This document shows positions 1 through 20,517 of a DNA stretch of 64,000 nucleotides, in pieces; position 1 is the first letter of the stretch, and the number at the start of each line of letters is the position of its first letter. Source of the stretch: Minisyncoccota bacterium (GTDB lineage Bacteria > Patescibacteriota > Minisyncoccia > Phycocordibacterales > UBA9973); the NCBI GenBank assembly GCA_041650615.1, contig JBAZKU010000001.1, positions 249,216-313,215 on the forward strand. Direction: 5' to 3'. The notes under the pieces are model-generated. The model was not told the origin of the DNA and ran no database searches. It saw only the letters and a list, made by a program, of their open reading frames with translations. Both the position numbers and the translations under genes were made by a program.

Positions 1-1842
1 TATCCTTACAATATAGGCGATAGAATTTCTAAAATGATTCCAATGGGTTCGCAAGGAATGCCTATGACCATAGACCATGCCATGGAAATCGTTCCCGAAT
101 TAAAAGATGCATACAAAACCGAGAAAGATACAAAAATAATAATAGATTTGGCAAAAAAATTGGAGGGATGCGTTAGGCATATTTCGGTGCATGCTGCCGG
201 AGTGGTGATTGCCCCGAAACCTCTTTATGAATATGTGCCTACCCAATTTGACCCCAAGGGCGGAAAAATAATTACTCAATATGATATGTACAGCGTTGAG
301 GACGCGGGACTATTAAAATTTGATTTTCTGGGCATTAGAAATTTAGCCATATTGGGAGATGCCATAAGTTTGGTAAAAAGATTCTATGATATAAATATAG
401 ATATAGAGCGTATCCCGCTTGATGATAAAAAGACTTTTGCCCTGTTGGCCTCCGGTCAAACGGAAGGGCTTTTTCAATTAAACGGAGCCGGAATGACAAG
501 ATATTTAAAGGAACTCAGGCCCACTTCTATTCATGATATCAACGCCATGGTGGCGCTTTATCGTCCCGGACCGATGGAATCAATTCCGGAATATATTAAG
601 CGCAAGCATGACAGAAAACTTGTAAAATATTTGGACCCGCGAATGAAAAAATTCTTGGGTGAATCATATGGATTAATTGTCTATCAAGATGACCTGCTTT
701 TTTGCGCCATAGAACTGGCCGGTTACAACTGGGAAGAAGCAGATAAATTCCGCAAGGCCGTCGGAAAGAAAATTCCAAAAGAAATGGCAGCGCAGAGAGA
801 AAAATTTACCAAAGGTATCATTTCAAACGGGCAAACTCCGGAATTTGCCGAAAAGCTCTGGAAAATTTTTGAACCGTTTCAAGCTTACGGTTTCAACAAA
901 GCGCATGCGGCCAGTTATGGCAGAGTTGCCTATCAAACAGCTTATATGAAAGCGAATTATCCCGTTGAATATATGACCGCCATTCTTACTGCTGAGTCCG
1001 GGGATGTGGAAAAAATATCCGAGATAATTAATGAATGTAAAAATATGAATATTCCGGTTCTGCCCCCAAATATCAATGAAAGCTATGGCGGTTTTACGGT
1101 GATAAGAAATAATACAAAATCGGAAAAAATACGATTCGGCCTTTACACCATTAAAAATCTGGGTACCGATATTGCCGATTCTATCATAGCCGAGAGAAAG
1201 ACAAACGGAAAATTCAAATCAATCACTGATTTTCTGAACAGAATCAAACATAAAAATTTAAATAAAAAATCCATGGAAGCGCTGATTAAATCAGGCAGTA
1301 TGGATGAATGGGGTGACCGAGGAGTTTTTCTCTTTAATCTTGAAGATATGCTTTTGTATCATAAAGAATCTTCCAATAGAAATGAAAATCAGACTTCTCT
1401 TTTTGGTGAATTGCCTCAATCTCAAATTTCATCTTTCAAATTAAAAGACGCCCCTTCGGCAACTCAAGCTGAAAAATTGCTTTGGGAAAAAGAGTTATTA
1501 GGGCTTTATATTTCAGGACATCCGTTGGATCGCATCCGCGAAAAATTGGAAAGCCGTGACATAAATATCAAAAAAATAAAAGAAAAAATCGGTAATGGTA
1601 TGCAAATAACCATCGCCGGAATAATAGAAACTTCAAGACCAGTTATTACCAAAAACAATGACCGAATGGCATTTTTAAAAATCTCGGATTTGACTGGTTC
1701 TATAGAAGCTGTGGCTTTTCCAAATATTTTTAAAGAATCCATTGACATTCTAGTTCCCGAAAAATGCATTGCTTTTTCCGGCAAAGTCTCTCTCCGCAAC
1801 GGTGAAAAAAGCATTATTATAGAAGCAGTGAAAGAGATATAG
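1..1842 (+). CDS. dnaE: DNA polymerase III alpha subunit, C-terminal portion (5' end lies outside the window)
   Basis: ORF 34..1842 translation contains the DnaE signature GLFQLNGAGMTRYL...ALYRPGP and an OB-fold tail; the reading frame is open back to position 1. Confidence 0.85.
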   Translation, partial: YPYNIGDRISKMIPMGSQGMPMTIDHAMEIVPELKDAYKTEKDTKIIIDLAKKLEGCVRHISVHAAGVVIAPKPLYEYVPTQFDPKGGKIITQYDMYSVEDAGLLKFDFLGIRNLAILGDAISLVKRFYDINIDIERIPLDDKKTFALLASGQTEGLFQLNGAGMTRYLKELRPTSIHDINAMVALYRPGPMESIPEYIKRKHDRKLVKYLDPRMKKFLGESYGLIVYQDDLLFCAIELAGYNWEEADKFRKAVGKKIPKEMAAQREKFTKGIISNGQTPEFAEKLWKIFEPFQAYGFNKAHAASYGRVAYQTAYMKANYPVEYMTAILTAESGDVEKISEIINECKNMNIPVLPPNINESYGGFTVIRNNTKSEKIRFGLYTIKNLGTDIADSIIAERKTNGKFKSITDFLNRIKHKNLNKKSMEALIKSGSMDEWGDRGVFLFNLEDMLLYHKESSNRNENQTSLFGELPQSQISSFKLKDAPSATQAEKLLWEKELLGLYISGHPLDRIREKLESRDINIKKIKEKIGNGMQITIAGIIETSRPVITKNNDRMAFLKISDLTGSIEAVAFPNIFKESIDILVPEKCIAFSGKVSLRNGEKSIIIEAVKEI

Positions 1843-1891
1843 AAACGAAAAAATCCACTTGCGCAGATTTTTTCGTTTGCAATAAGTGGAT

Positions 1892-2299
1892 TTAATATCC
1901 TCTAATATATTTTTTAAACATGAGTTTCATCTCAATCATGCTTAAATTGTTAAACTCAGCCGGTACTAATTTTATTAGATACTGTTGCATTTTAATCCTT
2001 TGTTTCAGATTTAAACGAAGAATTAAAGAAGCTAAAAAAGACCCACCGAGAAAAAACAACATCATACTTACAAACATAATTACAAATTTTGTTGTTGTCT
2101 CGCTTTCTAAAGTTAATTTAAAACAAAAAGCAACAATCAAAAAAAGAAAAAGTGAAAAGAAAATTTGTAAATCCATAAAAAACGGATTCCAAAATTTTTT
2201 TTCAAATAATTTATCTTTGCCCCAAAAAAGGCAGACAAGAGACCCCAAAGAAAATAAAAAGGATGCTCCATATAAAAGACCGAAGAAAAAATTAAGCAT
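1892..2299 (-). CDS. hypothetical multi-pass membrane protein
   Basis: Hydrophobic segments (FLFSLGSLVCLFW, FFSLFLFLIVAFCF, FVSMMLFFLGGSFLASLIL). The overlapping + strand ORF is lysine-rich low complexity and probably spurious. Confidence 0.35.
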   Translation of the reverse strand: MLNFFFGLLYGASFLFSLGSLVCLFWGKDKLFEKKFWNPFFMDLQIFFSLFLFLIVAFCFKLTLESETTTKFVIMFVSMMLFFLGGSFLASLILRLNLKQRIKMQQYLIKLVPAEFNNLSMIEMKLMFKKYIRGY

Positions 2300-2427
2300 G
2301 ACGACTCTCCTCTAGTTAGTGAAAATATGTTTATTTCAATATACTAAATCATGTTTAGTATAACATATATAAAATAAAATATCAAGCAGAATTAGTGGTC
2401 TTCTTATTTCCTGTAACGTATAACCCT

Positions 2428-3159
2428 ACCCCATAGGTCTTGCCTATGGGGTACACCTCTGCTATATTTATATTATGTCTATAAGAAAAGTAGATTTTTC
2501 AGTAAATGAGTATTATCATCTCTACAACCGTGGGAATAGTAAACAAATAATTTTCAAAGACGAACAAGATTATAATCACTTTATGAAGTTACTTTTTTTG
2601 TGCAATTCTCAGAAAAGTATTGTGTATAGAGATATTTCAAAAAATACTTTTGATTTTGATCGAGAAGAAACTTTAGTTCATATAGGCGCGTATTGTCTTA
2701 TGCCAAATCATTTTCACCTACTAGTTAAAGAAGAGGTGGAAAATGGGATAAGCAGATTTATGCAAAAACTCACAACCGCTTACGTAATGTATTACAATAA
2801 AAAATATAAAAGAACTGGTGCACTATTTGAAGGAAAATTTAAATCTCAACATATTAGTATTGACAGATATATGAAATATTTATTTTCATATATACATTTA
2901 AATCCTATAAAACTAATTGAATCTGGTTGGAAAGAAAAAGGAATAAAAAACACAGAAAATGCTCTCAGGTATTTAAAAGCCTATCAATACTCAAGTTATC
3001 TAGATTACTTAAAAGAAGATCGTATTAAAAGAAAAATTCTTAATAAAAAAGAATTTCCTAAATATTTTTCATCTAAAAATTCTTTTGAAAGAGAGATCTT
3101 AGATTGGCTAAAATATAAAAAACAATAAGCCTTACCCCATAGGCAAGACCTATGGGGCT
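2428..3159 (+). mobile_element. RAYT/IS200-like unit: transposase gene flanked by inverted REP-like hairpins (ccccatagg-tcttg-cctatgggg / ccccatagg-caaga-cctatgggg)
   Basis: Perfect 9-bp stems at 2430..2452 and 3135..3157. The right hairpin is the reverse complement of the left one. Confidence 0.5.
2475..3128 (+). CDS. IS200/IS605-family Y1 HUH transposase (RAYT-like)
   Basis: HuH motif in 'CLMPNHFHLLV', a Tyr-rich segment 'AYVMYYNKKYKRTGALFEGKF', and the N-terminal 'YHLYNRGN' typical of the Y1_Tnp / REP-associated tyrosine transposase fold. Flanked by inverted hairpins. Confidence 0.6.
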   Translation: MSIRKVDFSVNEYYHLYNRGNSKQIIFKDEQDYNHFMKLLFLCNSQKSIVYRDISKNTFDFDREETLVHIGAYCLMPNHFHLLVKEEVENGISRFMQKLTTAYVMYYNKKYKRTGALFEGKFKSQHISIDRYMKYLFSYIHLNPIKLIESGWKEKGIKNTENALRYLKAYQYSSYLDYLKEDRIKRKILNKKEFPKYFSSKNSFEREILDWLKYKKQ

Positions 3160-3194
3160 ACATAGAGGCAGTGAAAGAGATATAAAGAAACTAA

Positions 3195-3467
3195 CTAACT
3201 TTCTAATTTTATTCGCGTAGCCAATTCATTATCTATTCCATTGATTTGTTTTTTTAAGACTAAAATTTTATTTTCAATTTCTTTTTTAGTTTCTTGATAA
3301 TTCATTTGCTGTCCCCTAATTACTGTATCTGATTGTTTACTCATAAGACTTTCAAGTTGCATTTGCAGAGCATTAAGTTCTTCTGAGAGTTTATCTTTTT
3401 TTTTACTTAATTCCTCAAACTCATCAATATTTCTATCTTCAATTCCTAATACTAGTCCTTCACTCAT
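3195..3467 (-). CDS. hypothetical small coiled-coil protein
   Basis: 90-aa ORF, charged heptad-like sequence; no recognisable domain. Confidence 0.3.
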   Translation of the reverse strand: MSEGLVLGIEDRNIDEFEELSKKKDKLSEELNALQMQLESLMSKQSDTVIRGQQMNYQETKKEIENKILVLKKQINGIDNELATRIKLES

Positions 3468-3480
3468 ATATTTTTAAAAA

Positions 3481-4011
3481 TTAATTATAAAGACTCATCG
3501 CTTTTTCTTTACCTTCGGTAAAAATAACTTCCAAAGCCTCGACGACTTTTTTGGAAAGTTTTTTCAATGTTTCCAGTTCATTTTTTTTATATTCGCCAAG
3601 TAAGAATTTCAACACTGCTTTTTCCCCTTTCGGTTTTCGTATTTTCCCGGACGGAGTAGCCGGTGAGGTGCCAATCCTGATGCGCAAGAATTCTTCTGAT
3701 TTCAGAGCTTTGATAATAGAACCCAAACCATTGTGTCCCCCGGAAGATCTATTAAAAGAAATTTTCATTTTTCCTATTGGTAGATCAATATCATCGTAAA
3801 TCACAACAAGATCTTTTAAATCTTTCTTGGATTTTATCAAGGGGGCAATTACCTTGCCTGAATTATTCATAAATTTATCCGGAAACACAAACTTAACCTT
3901 ATCTTTAAGTTTTAATTTTTTCTCAACCATCCCAAGCATAATAAAACCGGTATTATGCCTGGTATTTTCATATTCTTTGCCTGGATTTCCCAAACCAACG
4001 ACTAATTTCAT
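3481..4011 (-). CDS. pth: peptidyl-tRNA hydrolase
   Basis: MKLVVGLGNPGKEYENTRHNTGF... is the canonical Pth N-terminus; size about 176 aa. Confidence 0.85.
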   Translation of the reverse strand: MKLVVGLGNPGKEYENTRHNTGFIMLGMVEKKLKLKDKVKFVFPDKFMNNSGKVIAPLIKSKKDLKDLVVIYDDIDLPIGKMKISFNRSSGGHNGLGSIIKALKSEEFLRIRIGTSPATPSGKIRKPKGEKAVLKFLLGEYKKNELETLKKLSKKVVEALEVIFTEGKEKAMSLYN

Positions 4012-4132
4012 ATATTGTAAATAATAGCACTAATAGTCCTCTCCTGCCAAGAGGAGAATTTGGGAAAGGTTTAATTTACTAAAAAACAATTATCTCCTTC
4101 GTGTCAAGACTTTTCTGTGTTAAAATACATAC

Positions 4133-4729
4133 ATGAATGAAGAAAAAACAAAGCCTGCCTCGCCAAGTCAAGGCGGAGATAAATTCACTAAACAGTCGTT
4201 TTGGGAGCTTGTGCGTTTTGTGTTAATAGCCATAGCTATAGTCATTCCTATCCGTATGTTCATAGCTCAGCCTTTTATAGTCTCAGGTTCTTCTATGGAC
4301 CCCACGTTTGAGGACGGACAATATTTAATAATAGATGAAATATCTTACAGATTAAACAATCCGCAAAGAAATGACGTTGTAGTTTTTAGATATCCGAACG
4401 ACCCGACAAAATTCTTTATCAAAAGAATAATTGGACTGCCGAATGAAACAGTAGATATAAAAGGCACAGTAATTACCATAACCAATAAGGAAAATCCGGA
4501 GGGATTTATTCTTGACCAATCTTATATAAAAAATGCCGTGGAAAGTAATACGCATCTTGAACTGAAAAATGACGAGTATTTCGTGATGGGAGATAATAGG
4601 TCTGCCAGTTCCGATTCAAGATATTGGGGCGCAGTACCCAAAAATCTCCTGATAGGAAAAGTATTTTTACGCTTATTGCCAATAAGTGAGATAGGTATAT
4701 TGCCGGGCGATTATAAAAAAACTGAGTAA
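4133..4729 (+). CDS. lepB: signal peptidase I (bacterial LepB type)
   Basis: SGSSMDPTF (Ser box), RIIGLPNETV, GDNRSASSDSRYWG boxes; N-terminal TM. Confidence 0.85.
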   Translation: MNEEKTKPASPSQGGDKFTKQSFWELVRFVLIAIAIVIPIRMFIAQPFIVSGSSMDPTFEDGQYLIIDEISYRLNNPQRNDVVVFRYPNDPTKFFIKRIIGLPNETVDIKGTVITITNKENPEGFILDQSYIKNAVESNTHLELKNDEYFVMGDNRSASSDSRYWGAVPKNLLIGKVFLRLLPISEIGILPGDYKKTE

Positions 4730-4733
4730 AGAT

Positions 4734-6035
4734 ATGAAAACAAAAAATACTAAAACTAAGACAAAAAATCTGTCATCGCCGAAAGGAATGCGGGATATTA
4801 TTAATGAAGAATATTACAACTTTCAAGGTTTTTTTGAAAAGGCGCAAGAGGTAGCCGTGTATTATGGTTTTAAGCCTATTGAGACTCCAATGTTAGAGCA
4901 TACAGAAGTCTTTACTTCAGGTATCGGCGAAGGGACAGATATAGTGGATAAAGAAATGTATACGCTTAAAACTAAAGGCGGAGACCATTTGGCGCTAAGG
5001 CCGGAACATACAGCGTCATTAATACGTTCTTATATTGAACATGGGATGCAAAATATGCCTCAACCTGTAATGTTTTATCAATATGGCCCTGCTTTTCGGC
5101 ACGACAATCCCCAGCGCGGACGCTACAGACAATTTTGGCAATTTGACTTGGATTCTTTGGGAAGCGATAAAAGTATCGTGGATGCGCTTGTAATAAAGGT
5201 GGGTATGAGTATTTTAGAAGAAGCCGGAGCTACTAATCTATCTGTGGATATTAATTCCATTGGCGACAAAGAATGCAGACATGCGTATATTAAAGAACTT
5301 ACCAGTTATTATAGAAAACATATAAATAATTTGGCCCATATTGACCGTGAACGCTTAAAAACGAATCCCCTTCGCATCTTGGATTCAAAAGAAGAAAAAA
5401 CAATGGAAGTAAATGTAAATGCGCCGGATTCCATAAGTTTTCTCTGTCCTTCTTGCAAAAAGCATTTTAAGGAAGTATTGGAATACTTGGAAGAAATGAA
5501 TATTCCCTACAATTTGAATAAAAATTTGGTGAGAGGACTTTCCTATTATACTCGCACTGTTTTTGAGGTAATTGAAGAAAAGGGCGGAGAAGATGGAACG
5601 ACATTAACCTTAGCTGGTGGCGGACGTTATGATTATCTCGCTCATCAACTCGGCAGTAAAAAAGATGTGCCGGCAGTGGGTTTTTCAATCGGAGTAGATA
5701 GAATTATTTCAGCTCCTTGGTATAAAAAACTCTGCCCTCGCATAATAAAAAAGCCAAAAATCTATTTTATTCAGTTGGGTTCTGAAGCAAAACTTAAAAG
5801 TTTGAATATAATAGAAATATTGCGCAAGGCGCATGTTCCTATTGCTCAGTCTATTTCAAAGGATAGTCTTGGCTCTCAATTAGCAATCGCTGAAAAATTA
5901 AATATCCCTTACGCGCTTATCTTTGGAGCAAAAGAAGCTATTGATAATTCGGTAATCGTGCGTGATATGTCTAATAGGTCTCAAGAAACCGTAAAATTAA
6001 ATAAACTTTTGGAATATTTAAAAGAGATCAAATAA
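4734..6035 (+). CDS. hisS: histidyl-tRNA synthetase
   Basis: LRPEHTASL, YQYGPAFRHDNPQRGRYRQFWQFD, GGGRYD class II HisRS motifs. Confidence 0.9.
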   Translation: MKTKNTKTKTKNLSSPKGMRDIINEEYYNFQGFFEKAQEVAVYYGFKPIETPMLEHTEVFTSGIGEGTDIVDKEMYTLKTKGGDHLALRPEHTASLIRSYIEHGMQNMPQPVMFYQYGPAFRHDNPQRGRYRQFWQFDLDSLGSDKSIVDALVIKVGMSILEEAGATNLSVDINSIGDKECRHAYIKELTSYYRKHINNLAHIDRERLKTNPLRILDSKEEKTMEVNVNAPDSISFLCPSCKKHFKEVLEYLEEMNIPYNLNKNLVRGLSYYTRTVFEVIEEKGGEDGTTLTLAGGGRYDYLAHQLGSKKDVPAVGFSIGVDRIISAPWYKKLCPRIIKKPKIYFIQLGSEAKLKSLNIIEILRKAHVPIAQSISKDSLGSQLAIAEKLNIPYALIFGAKEAIDNSVIVRDMSNRSQETVKLNKLLEYLKEIK

Positions 6036-6687: not shown

Positions 6688-7620
6688 ATGAATAATAAAA
6701 TAAATTTTGTATTTTGGGGAACACCGGATGTAGCATCAGAAACTCTGGAAATTCTTAAAGAAAATGGCTTTATGCCATCGCTTATTATTACTTCGCCTGA
6801 TAAACCACAAGGGCGTAAAATGGTTATAACTCCCCCGCCGGTAAAAGTTTGGGCAATTGAAAATAAGATTTCATATTTACAACCGGAGATCCTATCCGGC
6901 AAGGATTCTACTTTTATCGGGTCGCTGTCTGTGCCTACTGGCACAGCGCTGCCTCTCGGCTCGTCAGCCTGCGAGACACCCGCTAAAAGTAAATCCTTGC
7001 CGGATTTGTTTTTGGTTGTCGCCTATGGGAAAATAATTCCGGAAGATATTTTGAATATACCCAAACTAGGTTCTATAAATATTCATTATTCATTACTGCC
7101 AAAGTATCGCGGAGCTTCACCTGTGGAATCGGCTATTTTAAACGGAGATACAGAAACAGGCATTTCTATTCAAAAAATGGAATATAAAATGGACACCGGT
7201 CCGATTATTGCCCAAGAAAAAGTAGAAATAGGGCCGGACGAAAAAGCGCCTGAACTGCGCAAACGCCTAATAAAAATCGGGGGAGAACTTTTAGTAAAAA
7301 CTTTGCCGGATTTTATAGATGGAAAAACTAAATTGATTCCGCAAAGCGAGAACGAAGCCACTTATTGCAAGAAAATAAAAAAGGAAGATGGGCTTGTTGA
7401 CTTGGAGGCCTTGCCTCCAAGTGAGCTATATAACAAATTTCGCGCTTATGCCACTTGGCCCAGAACTTTTTTCTTTAAACCTGCCCGCAATGCTTCGCAT
7501 AGCGATGCAGGCGGGAATGGAAAAAGAATAATAATTACCGATGCTAAATTAGAAAATGGAGAATTTAAAATTCTAAAAATCATTCCTGAAGGAGGAAAAG
7601 AGACAAAATACGAAGGATAA
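6688..7620 (+). CDS. fmt: methionyl-tRNA formyltransferase (carries a 36-aa in-frame insertion)
   Basis: FWGTPDVA..., VVAYGKIIP, NIHYSLLPKYRGASPV, C-terminal Fmt domain. Confidence 0.9.
   Translation: MNNKINFVFWGTPDVASETLEILKENGFMPSLIITSPDKPQGRKMVITPPPVKVWAIENKISYLQPEILSGKDSTFIGSLSVPTGTALPLGSSACETPAKSKSLPDLFLVVAYGKIIPEDILNIPKLGSINIHYSLLPKYRGASPVESAILNGDTETGISIQKMEYKMDTGPIIAQEKVEIGPDEKAPELRKRLIKIGGELLVKTLPDFIDGKTKLIPQSENEATYCKKIKKEDGLVDLEALPPSELYNKFRAYATWPRTFFFKPARNASHSDAGGNGKRIIITDAKLENGEFKILKIIPEGGKETKYEG
6896..7003 (+). repeat. 108-bp GC-rich palindromic element inserted in-frame in fmt (outer stem CCGGCAAGGATT/AATCCTTGCCGG); paralogous copy in tgt
   Basis: Core gggtcgctgtct...agcgctgcctctcg...gcgagacaccc is shared with 56921..57028; both copies are exactly 108 bp and encode FIGSLS...ALPL...CETP. 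Confidence 0.6.
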
Positions 7621-8149: not shown

Positions 8150-10081
8150 TTAATATTTCATTCCATGAAAAAGGGCTTTTAAAATAACATCCAATTTCAT
8201 TGTCGCTACGCCTATAACTCTATCTCCTCCGCCGTAGTAAATATAAAGCAATTTATCTTTTACAACCATCCCGCAAGGGAATACCACATTATTAACAATT
8301 CCGCTTTTTTCATATTCTTCCACTGGTTCAAAAATCGGCTCGGTACTGCGCGCCAGCACTATGGCAGGATCTTTTGCGTCAAGCAAAACGCATCCCATAC
8401 GATAAGTATTATGACTTTTAGATACACCATGATAAAGCAATAGCCAGCCATATTTGGTTTTAATCGGCGGGGCGCAAATACCAACCTTAGAACTATCCCA
8501 AGTATTTGTTCTGGGTCCGATAATTCTTATGCATTTTTTTACCATTTCGTGCTTAAAATCCAGGGTTGATAAATAGTCGCCACAAACTTCATTACCTACG
8601 CGATGCAAAATAAAATAGCCCAAAGGAAATTTCTTGGGGAAGAGACAGGTGTCTTTATCATCAATCCCTTGCGGAGTAATGAGAAAAGGTTTTTCCCACT
8701 TCCAATTATGAGCAAGAAAATCTTTTTCCCCAATGGAAGAAATAGCTGCCCTCGGGGGACCAATACTGTCAAAAGCCGTATAACACATATAAATATTTTT
8801 ACCGATTCTAGTTAAACGGGGATCTTCACAACCTGAATTTTGATTATTGATTTTTTTATTTTCAAATTCCTCGCGCGGAACGTAAATAGGCGCAGATAAT
8901 CGTTCAATAATATCAATACCATTTTCCGTCATCGCATATCCCAAAACGGATGTATTATCCTGGGACATAGCGCGATATACTATGTGAATTTTCCCGTTTA
9001 GGGCAATAGAGGCTGGATTAAAAGTTGCTTTTTCTTCCCATTTATTTTCTGTTTTCGGAAGAATAATCGGATTTTGGGGAAAACGTTTGAAACTAAAATC
9101 GCTTTTGTATTTGAAATGTATACTGAAAATAAGGTCGTTTAAATTAACCCGAGCCAAACATACTGTCGTATCGGCTGCGCCGTAATATATGGTAAGCGTA
9201 TCTTTTTCAACCAAAGTTCCGGTTGGAAAAACTATATTTCCGACGTAGCCGGATAATTCGTAAAATTCTTCCGGCACAATAATAGGTCCGCCGGTCCGAC
9301 CTAATATTTTTTGAGAATCTGCTAAGTCAAATAAAACCGCTTCAATACCAAAGATCCTGTCAAGATTATTGGCTGAGGGAAAATAATTTTGAATATGGGA
9401 ATAAAGAAATAGCCAGCCATATTTGGTTTTAATTGGCGGGGCTCCGACTTCTATATGGTCATATGGCGAACGTTTTAAATCAATCATGCAACTATCCACA
9501 TTCTTTTCCCATTTTTCCCAAAATGACGGAGACCATAATTCTTCTATTCTATCCAGTTTGGCAATAACCACTTTAGCCGGAGGAGAATCGGTATGATATG
9601 AAAACATCACCACAATTTTTCCATTTATTCGTTCGGGAAACAGCGTCATGGCTTTGGCATTAAAGGGGGTGACCAAATGGCGCTCATCTATTTTTTTTAA
9701 ATCCTTGGAAAGAGCTACCGCTACTCTGATACCATCGGAGCTGAAAGGGTATTTGGAAAGCGCTGTATAAAAAGTGTAAAAAACACCCTCAAAATACGTT
9801 ATTCTAGGGTCTTCACAACCGAATTTTTCCCATTCTTCTTTGGGAATAATAAACGGCGCACGATCTTTGAAATGCACTCCATCTTTGCTTTTTCCTATGC
9901 CAATAGTTGAAATTTGGCTGGGATTTTGTAATTTATCCACCGCCGAAATAGCGCGATAAACTCCGTAAATATTTTTGCCGTATTTGATTGGGCAAAGATT
10001 AAAACTAGCAAATTTCTCCCAATAATGGTCTCCATCGGGAATTAATATCGGGTTGTACTCGGATTTTTTGACAACAAACAT
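8150..10081 (-). CDS. tandem two-domain GH130-family glycoside hydrolase/phosphorylase (beta-mannoside phosphorylase-like)
   Basis: Two repeats, each with 'GCEDPR' and 'APPIKTKYGWL(F/L)LY' motifs. Confidence 0.65.
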   Translation of the reverse strand: MFVVKKSEYNPILIPDGDHYWEKFASFNLCPIKYGKNIYGVYRAISAVDKLQNPSQISTIGIGKSKDGVHFKDRAPFIIPKEEWEKFGCEDPRITYFEGVFYTFYTALSKYPFSSDGIRVAVALSKDLKKIDERHLVTPFNAKAMTLFPERINGKIVVMFSYHTDSPPAKVVIAKLDRIEELWSPSFWEKWEKNVDSCMIDLKRSPYDHIEVGAPPIKTKYGWLFLYSHIQNYFPSANNLDRIFGIEAVLFDLADSQKILGRTGGPIIVPEEFYELSGYVGNIVFPTGTLVEKDTLTIYYGAADTTVCLARVNLNDLIFSIHFKYKSDFSFKRFPQNPIILPKTENKWEEKATFNPASIALNGKIHIVYRAMSQDNTSVLGYAMTENGIDIIERLSAPIYVPREEFENKKINNQNSGCEDPRLTRIGKNIYMCYTAFDSIGPPRAAISSIGEKDFLAHNWKWEKPFLITPQGIDDKDTCLFPKKFPLGYFILHRVGNEVCGDYLSTLDFKHEMVKKCIRIIGPRTNTWDSSKVGICAPPIKTKYGWLLLYHGVSKSHNTYRMGCVLLDAKDPAIVLARSTEPIFEPVEEYEKSGIVNNVVFPCGMVVKDKLLYIYYGGGDRVIGVATMKLDVILKALFHGMKY

Positions 10082-10087
10082 AAATTT

Positions 10088-11251
10088 TTATTTGAATTCC
10101 AATGATTTATTTTTCTCTAATTTTACTGCGCCATTTTTCTTCATACTGTTTATTAAATCTGAAAGCATTATAGAGGCAATACCTATATGCTTGTCTCCCC
10201 CGCCATAATAAACAAACAGTTTGCCATTTTTTACAACAGCCCCACTGGCGTATATAATCCCTTTTTTCCAGTCATTTTCATACCATTCATCCGGCTCAAG
10301 AATTGGATTCTGCGCCCGATAAAGAACTTTCTCCGGATTTTTTAGGTCAAGCAGAAGTGCTCCTAATTTATAGCGGCCGGAATCATCTTTATCCATAGCA
10401 TGATAAAGCAATAGCCAGCCATCTTTGGTTTTAATCGGTGGCGCAGCGGCGCTGCGGGTGCGTTTATGCCAAGCCACTACATGGTCCGGCAAAGATTGAG
10501 GATCAGGCGCATCTTTTCCTCTGGGTGTTTCTGATGTATCCAGTTTGTTTACAAAAGCAATAGCCACTCGTGCCGGGTCTCCTTTATCCAGATTATGAAA
10601 AATTGCAAACTTGCCATTTATTTTTTCCGGAAACAAAACCCAATTTTTTTGCCTGTCTCCCTCGTGGGAAAGATAAGAAAAATTTTCCCAAACCCATTTC
10701 TTGTTTAATAAATTTTCTTCCTTAATTGAAGTTACCGCCACTCGCATAGAATCCCATCCATTGAACATATTAAAAGTCATATATACATAACCATCTATCA
10801 AAACTGTACGCGGGTCTTCGCAACCGCCCCAGCCACCCCCGGAAGCATAAAGTACCGTATCATAGCGCGCGGGAGAAGTGTAAGGCCAATGTTTTTTCAT
10901 TTCTTCGGCATTTTCCACGAAATAAACCGGATAAGAAAGTCGTTCATCAAAGTTTATGCCATCTTTGCTGGAAGCATACCCAATGCGAGATATCCCATCC
11001 GCTCCCAATGCTCGGTAAAAAAGATGTATTCGTCCGCTGGAAGAAATAACAGCCGGATTAAAGACAGCATGAGATTCCCAATAATATGGTCGAGGTTCAA
11101 TAATTGGATTGCGAGGAGATCTTACAAGTTTCGGAGTTTTAGTTAGTTTTTTGCCTTTTGGCCGCCCTGTTTTAGAGACAATTTTAGTTTTTCTCTTTTT
11201 AACTATGATTTTTTTCTTTATTTCCTTTGATTTTTTCAATACTTTTTTCAT
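10088..11251 (-). CDS. GH130-family glycoside hydrolase/phosphorylase with a basic Lys-rich N-terminal extension
   Basis: GGCEDPR, APPIKTKDGWLLLYHA; N-terminal KKxKK low-complexity region. Confidence 0.65.
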   Translation of the reverse strand: MKKVLKKSKEIKKKIIVKKRKTKIVSKTGRPKGKKLTKTPKLVRSPRNPIIEPRPYYWESHAVFNPAVISSSGRIHLFYRALGADGISRIGYASSKDGINFDERLSYPVYFVENAEEMKKHWPYTSPARYDTVLYASGGGWGGCEDPRTVLIDGYVYMTFNMFNGWDSMRVAVTSIKEENLLNKKWVWENFSYLSHEGDRQKNWVLFPEKINGKFAIFHNLDKGDPARVAIAFVNKLDTSETPRGKDAPDPQSLPDHVVAWHKRTRSAAAPPIKTKDGWLLLYHAMDKDDSGRYKLGALLLDLKNPEKVLYRAQNPILEPDEWYENDWKKGIIYASGAVVKNGKLFVYYGGGDKHIGIASIMLSDLINSMKKNGAVKLEKNKSLEFK

Positions 11252-11309: not shown

Positions 11310-11789
11310 TTATTTTTCCTTAATTTTCTTGGAATATTCCTTTAAAAGCTCGGAGGAACTGCGAATTTTGCCTCCGTGGCCTACATTAAAAACCATTTCA
11401 ATGCCAAGCTTTTTACAAACTTTGTGCTCTGAAAAAGGGATATCCACATCTTCCGGCTTTCTATCCCCGCCATTGGCAAAAATATGAGGCTTGATTTTTA
11501 ATAATTCCCTACTGACACTTATATCCTTTGTATTTTTTTTATGACTTGAAATAACGACTTTGTCCACGCATTCCAATGCTTCTATAATCTCTTTTCTCTC
11601 GTCATGAGACATAAAAACCGGCTTTCCTTTCACTTTAAACCAATTATCATTATTTAAAATTACAATTAACTTATCACCTAACTTTTTTGCCTCTTGGAAC
11701 ATCCGAATATGCCCAATATGCAGCGGATCAAATCCCCCGCTAACCGCTACTATTTTTCTTCCTTTCTTGTTTTTCGTCTTGGAATTCAT
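11310..11789 (-). CDS. cytidylyltransferase-like nucleotidyltransferase (TagD/RfaE domain II-like)
   Basis: VSGGFDPLHIGHI (HxGH motif), about 159 aa. Confidence 0.55.
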   Translation of the reverse strand: MNSKTKNKKGRKIVAVSGGFDPLHIGHIRMFQEAKKLGDKLIVILNNDNWFKVKGKPVFMSHDERKEIIEALECVDKVVISSHKKNTKDISVSRELLKIKPHIFANGGDRKPEDVDIPFSEHKVCKKLGIEMVFNVGHGGKIRSSSELLKEYSKKIKEK

Positions 11790-11838
11790 TGATTCATTAT
11801 ACCAAAAATAATAAATCTGGTATAATTTATTTATGTAT

Positions 11839-11956
11839 CCCGTTAGAGATTAAATAGTTAAAATAAATTTCTCGGGGAAATGGGTATAAAAAATGTGTCG
11901 AAATTATAATGATTAAATTAAGAACGAAAATCTAAAAATTTTCTATCTCTAACGGG
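11839..11956 (+). mobile_element. MITE-like element (TIR CCCGTTAGAGAT ... ATCTCTAACGGG) inserted at the start codon of the EamA gene; perfect 6-bp target duplication ATGTAT
   Basis: 12-bp perfect TIRs; ATGTAT at 11833..11838 and 11957..11962; an extended -10 (TGGTATAAT) sits immediately upstream of the left duplicate. Confidence 0.45.
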
Positions 11957-16028: not shown

Positions 16029-17493
16029 TTATTACAGGTTCACTTGCCGGAGCTTCTACTGGAGCTTCTACCGAAGGCTGACCAACCTCTGGCCGTGGTT
16101 CTTCTGAAACCACTGCTTCTTCTGCAACTGGTACTGATTCTATTTCTGGAACTATTGTTTCCTCTATAACTGGTTCTTCTTGGCTTGTTTCAGGCGTGGT
16201 AGACTCTTCTGTTACAACTTCTTCAACAACTTCCGTATCTGAAGCCGGAGGTGTTTCCTCAGGCGCTATTGTTTCTGTTGTTTCATTTGTAGCTTCTTCT
16301 TGTTCTGTTTCTGTGCCACTAGCCAAAACTTCTTCCGGTTGTTCCTCTTCTGTAATAGCTTCTTCAATCACAGTTTCCTCTTTTGTGTTTTCTTCTGTAA
16401 CAGTTTCATCTTCAACTACTTCACTTGCTACGGTTTCTTCTGCGATAATAGGTTCTGTCAGTGTAAGTTCTACAATCGGTTCTTCTTCAATAATTTCTTC
16501 CACTAATTCATTTGATACGCCCGGTGTTGGTATTGGGTCAACCCAAGATCCGACTCCATCCGGAATTCTGGCATATGAATATCCCTCCGGTTTTTCTTCC
16601 GTATAAGAATAAGAATCAACAACAATACTGGAAGCTATAGGATAACCGGTCGCCAATCTGACACTATCCGCATCATTATTCAAATTAAAATCAGGATCTC
16701 CGTTTCTATATACAACTAGAAATCCATGAGCTCCGATTACAGTCCCGCCTGTATTAGTATTGGAATTTTGAATATAAAGCTTGTGAGAATCATCATTATC
16801 ATAAATTGCCCAACCGGATAAATCAAAAGCTACACTGCTATTATTATAAAGTTCTACCCATTCACCGCCGGGCATTAAAGCATCATCCAAACCACTTGGA
16901 TTTGAAATAAATTCATTAAGAACTACAGCTTTGCCGATTCTTATTGATCCTAATTTTTCTTTTGTACTGCTAAATCCGCTAGAGGCATCAGGCAAATTAT
17001 CTTGCCAAGTTGTGAAAGTCCATTTAAAGAAACAGGTCTTGCCCCAGACACTGGGCGGGGCATCGGAAGCAATCGTAAAATTAAAATTCCAAGCAGTATC
17101 AACTGTAGCCGTCGCTACCGAAGTGAATCCTTGTATTGGTCCTGTATAAGTATCCGTAGGACTAGTAGCTGTCATTGTTATATAATCACAAGCCGAGGTA
17201 CTGCTTCCTGAAAGAGTGGTTTGGACTGTATACTGAGAATCCAAACTGCCGGTGTTAGAAATATGTATGGAAGTTGAAGTAGTATCAGTCGGATACATCA
17301 GACCGGAAGTAAAGTTACTCATGGAATCTAGACCAATATCTAAAATTCCAGCAGAAAGAGAATTATCGGTTAAGCTGTCGGTATCACTGAAATAAGCATT
17401 CGTTGCGCCAATATTGAGATTGAAAGTAATCAAGCTTAAAATAAGAGCAAGAGCAATAAAAATCTTATTTTTTTGTAATATCAGATTATACAT
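16021..17493 (-). CDS. lamin-tail-domain (LTD) surface protein with SipW-cognate signal peptide and long acidic E/T/V/P-rich tail
   Basis: N-terminus ...GATNAYFSDTDSLTDNSLSAGILDIG; LTD core NEFISNPSG...EWVELYN...DLSGWAIYD; about 170-aa polyacidic C-terminus. Confidence 0.55.
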   Translation of the reverse strand: MYNLILQKNKIFIALALILSLITFNLNIGATNAYFSDTDSLTDNSLSAGILDIGLDSMSNFTSGLMYPTDTTSTSIHISNTGSLDSQYTVQTTLSGSSTSACDYITMTATSPTDTYTGPIQGFTSVATATVDTAWNFNFTIASDAPPSVWGKTCFFKWTFTTWQDNLPDASSGFSSTKEKLGSIRIGKAVVLNEFISNPSGLDDALMPGGEWVELYNNSSVAFDLSGWAIYDNDDSHKLYIQNSNTNTGGTVIGAHGFLVVYRNGDPDFNLNNDADSVRLATGYPIASSIVVDSYSYTEEKPEGYSYARIPDGVGSWVDPIPTPGVSNELVEEIIEEEPIVELTLTEPIIAEETVASEVVEDETVTEENTKEETVIEEAITEEEQPEEVLASGTETEQEEATNETTETIAPEETPPASDTEVVEEVVTEESTTPETSQEEPVIEETIVPEIESVPVAEEAVVSEEPRPEVGQPSVEAPVEAPASEPVISE

Positions 17494-19855: not shown

Positions 19856-19871
19856 GATTTATTTATTCTTT

Positions 19872-19892
19872 GCGTTAGGCAAGACCTAACGC
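19872..19892. repeat. REP-like hairpin gcgttagg-caaga-cctaacgc sharing the 13-nt core TAGGCAAGACCTA with the hairpins flanking the RAYT-like gene
   Basis: Direct sequence comparison with 3135..3157. Confidence 0.45.
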
Positions 19893-20025
19893 ATAATTAA
19901 TTTAATAATAATTTTTTGTTTTTTAACCCTCGACCTTTTTTTTTGCTTTTAAAGTGCAAATGGAAACTTTTTATTGTTAAAAAGCTTGCATAAGTATTCT
20001 AAAAGCATTAATTTTTAAAAAACAA

Positions 20026-20066
20026 AAACCGCAAACCGAAAAAACTTTCGGACTGCGGTTTTTGTT
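20026..20066. terminator. bidirectional Rho-independent terminator (aaaccgca-aa-ccgaaa / tttcgg-ac-tgcggttt + T-run)
   Basis: 14-bp interrupted stem followed by TTTTGTTCTT; A-run on the other side. Confidence 0.5.
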
Positions 20067-20488
20067 CTTGTTGAGCAAACATTGATTTGTAAAATTTGCT
20101 TTTAACATAAATCAAATTCTTTATTTTTTTGTTCTTATCCTGGTATCTTCGCGTATTCTTGGCTCCCGGCAAGAATTTTGATTTATTCCCATACTTAATT
20201 ATATGGGTCTAACATTACCTGCTACCCTTAAATATGTCAAACGTGCATCTGTGAATAAAAAGTGGATAAAAAGAGGCTATAATTACAAGGGTAGAAAGCT
20301 CAGTAATGGACACTAAATAAGGGAACTACTTTATAAAAAAGTAATTATTTAGTGTCCATTGCCAAGCTTTCAAAAATCTTTTAGCAGTCTAGCACAAACT
20401 AGACACACTGTCAACAGTGTGTGCTAATAAAAAAACTAGAAAAACAACTTCCCTCTTTTGAAGTTGAAATGATACTTCATGAAAATTT

Positions 20489-20511
20489 ACGAAGGATTAT
20501 CCTTCGTTTTT
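20489..20511. terminator. hairpin acgaaggat-t-atccttcgt + TTTTT just downstream of the dinD-like stop; second copy of the 7610 hairpin
   Basis: Perfect 9-bp stem, T-run on the + strand. Confidence 0.45.
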
Positions 20512-20517
20512 ATTTGA

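Follow-up and report, generated by a model that had tools for sequence, protein, structure and literature searches.

The DNA analysed here (hereafter the window) is a 64-kb stretch of contig JBAZKU010000001.1, from a Paceibacterota (Nomurabacteria-like) bacterium with a very small Patescibacteria genome. In the spacer between its dnaE and pth genes lies a gene whose product resembles the REP (repetitive extragenic palindromic)-associated tyrosine transposases (RAYTs), bounded by two inverted hairpins and followed by a second copy of the last codons of dnaE. From left to right, the junction consists of the 3' part of dnaE (DNA polymerase III alpha, 34..1842, plus strand), a membrane protein open reading frame (ORF; 1892..2299, minus strand), the left hairpin (2427..2453, plus strand), the RAYT-like gene (2475..3128, plus strand), the right hairpin (3133..3157, plus strand), the second dnaE end, called a relic in what follows (3162..3191, core 3162-3185, plus strand), a coiled-coil ORF (3195..3467, minus strand), and pth (peptidyl-tRNA hydrolase, 3481..4011, minus strand, Pfam E=3e-44), which is the ancestral convergent neighbor of dnaE. 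A region of ~2.1 kb around the locus is 100% identical across three independent assemblies (ENA, JGI, and Logan; source samples ERZ27247363, JGI 3300037067, and SRR8542065), so that an assembly artefact was rejected. For comparison, stretches from relatives and metagenomes were fetched; these loci carry L numbers.

A RAYT-like gene between two hairpins

The 217-aa product of the ORF at 2475-3128 matches Pfam Y1_Tnp above the cut-off (E=1e-8) in the profile search that an earlier note on this DNA had proposed. The HUH residues H79 and H81 (HFH 79-81 in HFHLLV) are invariant among 52 homologues, and Y139, in YIHLNP, is conserved in at least 90% of them; judged by this conservation, Y139 is probably the catalytic tyrosine. 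The AlphaFold2 model of the protein (pLDDT 93) has as its top fold match in the PDB the E. coli TnpA_REP with a REP hairpin (PDB code: 4ER8; E=7e-7, TM 0.64), which outranks every IS200/IS605 transposase in the structure comparison. The domain, the HUH residues, and the fold bear out the identification of a RAYT/IS200-like Y1 HUH gene made in that note.

By sequence, the protein is remote from both TnpA_REP and the IS200/IS605 transposases. A search of the PDB with the single sequence gave no match, a profile search gave weak matches only, to ISDra2 TnpA and 4ER8, and the equivalog model NF047646 of NCBIfam (REP_Tyr_transpos) scored 43.9 bits against a cut-off of 80. RAYTs are characterized by a conserved N-terminal Thr and by the motif NP(L/V)(R/K)xG beside the Tyr (PMC2817692). 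In the 217-aa protein, this Thr is absent, YHLYNRGN having Tyr or Asn at that place, and the second motif is partial, YIHLNPIKLI containing NP-I-K and no Gly. Also, the protein has a conserved C-terminal helical extension (YxYSSY). The family is large, with 6,216 matches at 90% clustering and, at 50% clustering, 19,539 clusters at E up to 0.001 and 352 at 1e-30. The assignment to the RAYT/REP type has support, the protein representing a separate subfamily in Patescibacteria that is apparently undescribed; a literature search found no paper linking RAYT to Patescibacteria.

The window holds one RAYT copy according to tblastn. Pairwise identities of RAYT and dnaE are uncorrelated (Spearman rho=0.06, 45 pairs), and therefore the RAYT gene has moved horizontally; for example, L084 and L087 share 82% identity in RAYT and 65% in dnaE. 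RAYT groups 2 and 3 are vertically inherited and housekeeping-like (PMC5581495), a pattern that the family of the window, with identities independent of dnaE, does not follow.

The hairpins at 2429-2453 and 3133-3157 form a 25-nt inverted repeat of 100% complementarity, just as the earlier note had described them. Each has a 9-11-bp stem and a 5-nt loop, the left one reading TA-CCCCATAGG-TCTTG-CCTATGGGG-TA and the right one CCCCATAGG-CAAGA-CCTATGGGG. DNA folding gives -11.1 kcal/mol (z = -5.2) for the left hairpin and -10.0 kcal/mol (z = -3.9) for the right. The third hairpin that the note had placed near 19872 is real, solitary, and intergenic (19871-19893, plus strand, TGCGTTAGG-CAAGA-CCTAACGCA); it shares the loop and inner stem of the flanking pair (GG-CAAGA-CC core), with an outer stem that is different and, by compensated changes, fully paired. 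The count of hairpins suggested there for the whole genome was made for the 64 kb of the window, giving the two exact flanking copies and this variant. Further matches to GGCAAGACC or to the hairpin at 17035 and 7401 lie within coding genes and were taken as chance. The one at 7401-7421 is a perfect 8-bp hairpin with a REP-like loop, CTTGGAGG-CCTTG-CCTCCAAG, inside the fmt coding region, and it is probably fortuitous; a CCTTG loop is present in the genuine RAYT-flanking hairpins of L196 and L200.

When 16 orthologous loci are aligned at their ends, conservation starts and stops exactly at the hairpin feet. The conserved unit is therefore hairpin-RAYT-hairpin, of ~0.73 kb (~2427-3157), and not the 1.3-kb segment that the earlier note had taken as one inserted unit. 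The same hairpin flanks RAYT orthologues of 68-82% identity. On the left, it always has the TCTTG loop and stands 22-27 nt ahead of the ATG; on the right, where both orientations occur, it lies over or past the stop codon. Moreover, the 3' arm of the left hairpin provides a -35-like TTGCCT located 17-18 nt from a TATAAT-like box (2440-2468 in the window; also L027, L084, L091, L111, L141, L192, and others), and a recognition hairpin overlapping the putative RAYT promoter may allow autoregulation.

An exact-pattern scan of metagenomes located the 23-mer hairpin in 99 stretches, ~80% of them with no RAYT nearby, with up to six exact copies in one 250-kb contig and some tandem clusters. While the core GG-TCTTG-CC stays constant, the stems around it differ through compensated substitutions (CCCCATAGG, CCCCAGAGG, ACTACATAGG, GCGTTAGG, CCCACAGG, CACTGAGG, and others), and these stems were never found around control loops.

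This organization corresponds to that of a REPtron, a RAYT/TnpA_REP gene flanked by inverted REP hairpins, as reported for E. coli yafM/RayT, Pseudomonas, and Stenotrophomonas (Nunvar 2010 PMC2817692; Bertels 2017 PMC5581495; Quentin 2018 PMC6006769). Common to both are the Y1 HUH fold with 4ER8 as best structural match, a gene, present once in the window, that has a GC-rich hairpin on either side (the two inverted in the window), a right hairpin at or over the stop codon, and co-varying hairpins that are found elsewhere alone and in tandem clusters. However, the protein of the window differs by its length of 217 aa with the C-terminal extension, its absent or partial RAYT motifs, and its score below the NCBIfam cut-off. 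Also, tnpA_REP genes are reported to favor larger genomes (PMC6006769), whereas this host has a very small one; the density of hairpins is low (three in 64 kb here, six exact copies in the 250-kb contig), the gene phylogeny is incongruent with that of the host, and there is a strong positional association with dnaE-pth. A comparison with IS200/IS605 elements (IS608, ISDra2) shows in common Pfam Y1_Tnp, weak profile and fold matches to the TnpA of ISDra2 and IS608, hairpins at both ends that define the unit, horizontal mobility, and no target duplication of fixed length. Unlike those elements, the cassette is seen in one copy in the window and not in multiple identical ones, its end hairpins are identical instead of distinct left and right ends, the protein is ~70 aa longer, and no common target tetranucleotide is found at the cassette flanks or at the gene-side joints described below.

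Gene-end relics in the dnaE-pth spacer and elsewhere

As revealed by the comparison of dnaE 3' ends that the earlier note had recommended, the nearest relatives have convergent dnaE and pth genes with overlapping stop codons (ATTTAATTATAC) and zero intergenic bases. This supports an ancestral state in which nothing would have stood between the two genes. Of the 69 relatives that have the two genes, 23 show a gap of ≤10 nt and 36 one of >100 nt, and the filled gaps contain unrelated ORFs, mostly without a family (ORFans). On these comparisons the spacer is a hypervariable spot, and 13 of the 16 contexts of close RAYT homologues are at dnaE-pth.

The 135-aa membrane ORF of the window (1892..2299), with a promoter-like site at 2385-2357, has no Pfam or NCBIfam match. 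In L010, where there is neither RAYT nor relic, the corresponding place holds a homologue of equal length (28% identity, E=7e-8); because of this, the ORF is probably a resident of the hypervariable spot and not RAYT cargo. Public calls for the ORF after dnaE (1892-2315) differ, being 131 aa on the plus strand in L001 and L003 and 135 aa on the minus strand in L002, and the existence of the L010 homologue favors the minus-strand membrane protein. On the other side of the cassette, the lineage-specific 90-aa coiled-coil ORF downstream of pth has no homologue in any fetched locus, including the dnaE-pth gaps of relatives. L192 has the order dnaE, minus-strand ORF, hairpin-RAYT-hairpin cassette, minus-strand ORF, and pth, with no relic and with small ORFs unrelated to those of the window. 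For the earlier note, the same segment in relatives without the flanking duplication would have told against its reading; such a segment thus exists in its architecture but not by homology. In L111, L141, L191, and L200, the RAYT cassette also stands at the dnaE-pth junction with no relic.

In the window, the working end of dnaE (last 602 codons within the window; Pfam DNA_pol3_finger, HHH_6, DNA_pol3_alpha, and an OB fold; full gene in L001) reads ATA GAA GCA GTG AAA GAG ATA TAG (IEAVKEI*, 1819..1842; ...IIIEAVKEI with the stop TAG at 1840-1842). The relic, which begins 4 nt beyond the right hairpin, reads ATA GAG GCA GTG AAA GAG ATA TAA (IEAVKEI*, stop at 3183-3185). As a direct repeat, 1819-1841 (ATAGAAGCAGTGAAAGAGATATA) and 3162-3184 (ATAGAGGCAGTGAAAGAGATATA) are identical at 22 of 23 positions (blastn-short E=2e-6), and extension of the repeat to ...GAAAC (3191) is weak, requiring a 2-nt indel. 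Its 17-mer core occurs exactly twice in the 64 kb against 0.02 expected; a chance repeat was rejected on these figures, and the 25-mer is not a frequent repeat, a possibility that the earlier note had raised against itself. What that note took for a duplicated dnaE end is a genuine displaced dnaE 3' end, and its insertion into the last dnaE codons describes the position of the joint correctly. Comparison with the nearest relatives did not set the native copy apart from the other. A dif/Xer site at the junction was also considered and dropped, the repeat having no dif-like dyad.

Relics were searched for downstream of every dnaE end and then of 1,443 ORF ends in all fetched DNA. Those of dnaE are found in the window (23-30 nt), L027 (46 nt), L087 (38 nt), L084 (17 nt), L199 (~75 nt, including a second terminator), L193 (eroded), L071 (85 nt), and L083 (~40 nt); those of pth in L015, L036, L091, and L196; and those of gap (GAPDH) in L013, L053, and L055. 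The order is always working gene end, cargo, relic of the same end, and old neighbor. Besides the window, at least 15 lineages have such relics. Lengths extend from 17 to 85 nt, an approximately five-fold spread, and some of the loci are without any RAYT. All dnaE relics have the last 17-21 nt of the gene in common. The cargo is the RAYT cassette alone in L027 and L087, the cassette with other ORFs in the window, L199, L196, and L091, unrelated ORFs in L071, L083, L015, L036, L053, and L055, and only 27 nt in L013. The gene-side joints follow TATT, ACCG, GGCA, AAGC, TTTC, and CACC, with no shared motif even for cassettes with identical hairpins.

Relic and working copies have diverged by 8-18%, and the changes are nearly confined to synonymous sites. 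For dnaE, 20 of 22 codon differences are synonymous or stop-to-stop (TAA/TAG), when 39% would be expected under in-place duplication with neutral decay (P=7e-7). Six more cases, with 15 non-synonymous changes between them, show only conservative replacements and retain their reading frames and stops. The copies thus differ as alleles do. Moreover, a separate, diverged terminator copy belongs to the L199 relic, and the relic of L087 matches the diverged dnaE type of that same genome.

A relic adjoins 8 of the 13 RAYT cassettes at dnaE-pth. In the eight cassette-adjacent cases (8/8), it starts 0-12 nt from the hairpin foot, at in-gene positions from -17 to about -60, and in L015 and L036 a REP-type hairpin is followed by a relic with no RAYT. 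The closeness of the joints to hairpin feet points to the hairpin as the element that sets the DNA end. Solitary hairpins show no flank duplication beyond that of mismatched flank pairs (101 sites), and the idea that insertion of the hairpin itself creates duplications was rejected on this result.

Some individual loci may be described further. The gap gene lies just upstream of dnaE in L013, L053, and L055, with 3'-end relics of 31-70 nt (reverse-complement coordinates 8248-8461, 10494-10934, and 11311-11901, respectively), and in L013 the 27 nt stand alone between the relic and the working end. A mirror image of the dnaE arrangement is seen where a pth-end relic is attached to dnaE and the working pth end lies across the insert (L015, L036, L091 at 3613-3640, and L196 at 3143-3181); in L015, the pth relic and dnaE have overlapping stops, which is the ancestral layout. 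What seemed to be relics in L112, L145, and L096 looked, by inspection, like similar C-termini of neighboring ORFs, and a 34-nt ORF-end duplicate in L075 (reverse complement, 4957-5080) flanks an N run and is a scaffolding artefact.

Origin of the displaced dnaE end

In the explanation that we favor, to which we give a probability of about one half, the locus is a REPtron, with a RAYT-like gene (single-copy in the 64 kb of the window) bounded by two cognate 23-nt hairpins in the hypervariable dnaE-pth spacer, and 3162-3185 would have belonged to the 3' end of another dnaE allele, displaced and brought there by recombination between lineages. DNA of a related lineage would have recombined with this chromosome, one crossover being homologous and inside dnaE, and the other joint being illegitimate, a few nucleotides past the right hairpin and onto position -23 of the partner's dnaE. 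The DNA end could have been defined passively by the stable hairpin, through an exonuclease block or a replication stall, or by a RAYT nick, and either partner could have been the incoming one. Selection would then remove the products that damage either of the abutting essential genes; because the ancestral dnaE and pth stops overlap, only those with a complete dnaE end and an intact neighbor would survive, leaving a working end plus a short relic. The anatomy of the locus, its family, the recurrence of relics, their allele-like divergence, and their place beside hairpins are observed; we infer the mechanism, and any role of RAYT in the joint, and recombination between diverged lineages is the best explanation for the varied lengths, the varied cargo, the allele-like copies, and the adjacency to hairpins.

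A known process with these properties is homology-facilitated illegitimate recombination, described in the naturally transformable Acinetobacter baylyi, Streptococcus pneumoniae, and Pseudomonas stutzeri. There, one homologous anchor and one illegitimate joint bring foreign DNA beside a conserved gene, which would explain why the copies are allele-like, the lengths and the cargo varied, and the target genes several. However, in experiments the process usually deletes recipient DNA, whereas a short duplicate is left here, and to our knowledge a preference of the joint for a place right beside a defined hairpin is undescribed.

Several points weigh against this explanation. No empty-site relative at ≥95% identity was found, and a sliding-window comparison of dnaE gave no clear mosaic breakpoint, which would be undetectable because the relatives are only 70-89% identical in nucleotides. 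No donor or recipient genome was found, and no microhomology could be demonstrated at the joints. For the window itself, the allele argument consists of one synonymous difference and the switch of stop codon, the statistics coming from other lineages. Also, a homology-independent step, possibly true transposition, must exist, because clades with 65% dnaE identity offer no homologous anchors. Finally, the relics of L071, L053, and L013 have no hairpin nearby, and hence the hairpin is not required for a relic.

The earlier note had ascribed the repeat to a target duplication, an idea that can be generalized to a true insertion of the cassette, on its own or together with adjoining DNA, with a long and variable duplication, made when nicks fall far apart on the two strands or when replication switches template at the hairpin (as in fork stalling and template switching or microhomology-mediated break-induced replication, FoSTeS/MMBIR), with the overlap filled in. 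In favor of this, hairpin-RAYT-hairpin makes up the whole insert in L027 and L087, with copies of the local dnaE end (46 and 38 nt, respectively) on both sides, and the L087 relic is of the resident dnaE type; at the relic-free outer boundaries of L084 and in L141, 4 nt of the overlapping stops (TTAA or TTAG) are kept on both sides. Nonetheless, Y1 transposases of the IS200/IS605 type leave no sizeable target duplication (PMC2817692), and a fixed length would be expected where 17, 23, 38, 46, 85 nt and others are seen. Divergence of the copies almost exclusively at synonymous positions would not be expected if a relic had formed in place and drifted neutrally, the relic of L199 contains a second terminator that has diverged, the 101 solitary hairpin sites have no excess duplication, and relics exist without RAYT or hairpin (L071, L053, and L013). 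A later homologous overwriting of the working copy could rescue this mechanism at the cost of an extra step, and we regard it as unlikely. A more active role of the enzyme can be conceived, in which RAYT and the REP hairpin form a device for gene capture and exchange, HUH-driven and integron-like; a cut a few nucleotides 3' of the hairpin would give an end to be joined into the conserved gene tail of another lineage, so that hairpin-terminated cassettes, including or lacking the RAYT gene, would be delivered behind essential genes along with a replacement gene end and the recipient's end left as the relic. We regard this as quite unlikely.

Direct repeats of a gene 3' end bracketing foreign DNA are also the mark of site-specific, Campbell-type integration, here of a small circular cassette carrying a replacement gene end, with the dnaE end as attB. 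Phage 21 and e14 integrate in icd, and islands in tRNA or tmRNA genes, replacing the gene 3' end. As in those elements, the working and displaced ends flank foreign DNA and differ mostly at silent positions; both copies retain frame and stop, as if either could serve, and the last 17-21 nt are common to all dnaE relics. However, no tyrosine or serine recombinase or integrase gene is found in or beside any insert, in the window or in the relic-bearing loci. The inserts, of 0.03-1.4 kb, have unrelated contents, three different genes are hit (dnaE, pth, and gap), the repeat lengths and left boundaries differ case by case, and 17-24 nt is short for a RecA-dependent crossover, all of which makes such integration highly doubtful. 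One-ended transposition catalyzed by RAYT would instead start from a cut 3' of the right hairpin and a surrogate left site in the upstream gene, and a single-stranded circle of gene end, cargo, and hairpin would enter the homologous gene in a new host, at the identical site. It predicts the observed order (donor end, cargo, hairpin, and recipient end), the precise joint on the hairpin side, and the allele-like copies. Also, the enzyme is intact and conserved in sequence and predicted structure, and the gene moves horizontally and yet is at dnaE-pth in most contexts. The chemistry of IS200/IS605 needs a fixed tetranucleotide, though, and the gene-side joints share none; relics also exist without RAYT or hairpin, and we hold this route to be very improbable.

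The module itself is a variant of the known REP/RAYT type, and the recurrent hairpin-adjacent relics are a new clue to RAYT/REP function. Published evidence on the cellular role of RAYT and on the movement of REP is mostly comparative or from in vitro cleavage, and here a distinct subfamily abundant in Patescibacteria recurs at a hot spot between two essential genes. If the enzyme makes the joints, these would be natural records of the site of RAYT cleavage and joining, and if it acts as a capture device, they would be the first natural in vivo footprints of RAYT activity. If recombination made them and RAYT is uninvolved, the locus would be a neat scar of an ordinary kind. Whatever the part of RAYT, the relics suggest that accessory genes reach genomes with overlapping essential genes via recombination between diverged lineages, and provide a countable marker of such events.

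Hairpin arrays and neighboring features

In some relatives, copies of one hairpin stand between all genes of the dnaE-pth spacer. In L084 (4374-6053), four copies of the same hairpin stand around a deaminase gene, the RAYT gene, and a small ORF; L067 (7860-9365) has another hairpin, CCCACATG-TCTGA-CATGTGGG, in five copies, of which one falls within a RAYT-matching stretch. This layout resembles an array of integron cassettes, each made of an ORF and a folded attC hairpin. However, an integrase of the tyrosine-recombinase type and an attI site are both missing, the enzyme found with the arrays is a HUH nuclease, and any mobility of the cassettes would be putative.

A search of 1500-4200 of the window against Rfam gave no known RNA family at E up to 1. 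Between dnaE and the convergent membrane ORF, an inverted repeat forms a 13-bp perfect stem-loop (1843..1878; DNA fold -10.9 kcal/mol, z = -4.8) that is probably a bidirectional terminator, and similar sequences follow dnaE in L005 and L007. In the metagenome locus L136, the sequence immediately beyond the right hairpin of a 58%-identical RAYT (ggttgggatcgaaccaac...) resembles the 3' half of a tRNA gene on the opposite strand. In L027 (4960-6267), a threonine-synthase-like gene, more GC-rich by eye, is located between the dnaE relic and pth of a genome that is AT-rich elsewhere, which could reflect a foreign acquisition or a chimeric contig. Finally, the variant hairpin of the window lies just upstream of the start of a minus-strand gene, in a 660-nt intergenic region (19856-20517) that also has a strong terminator-like stem near 20030-20060.

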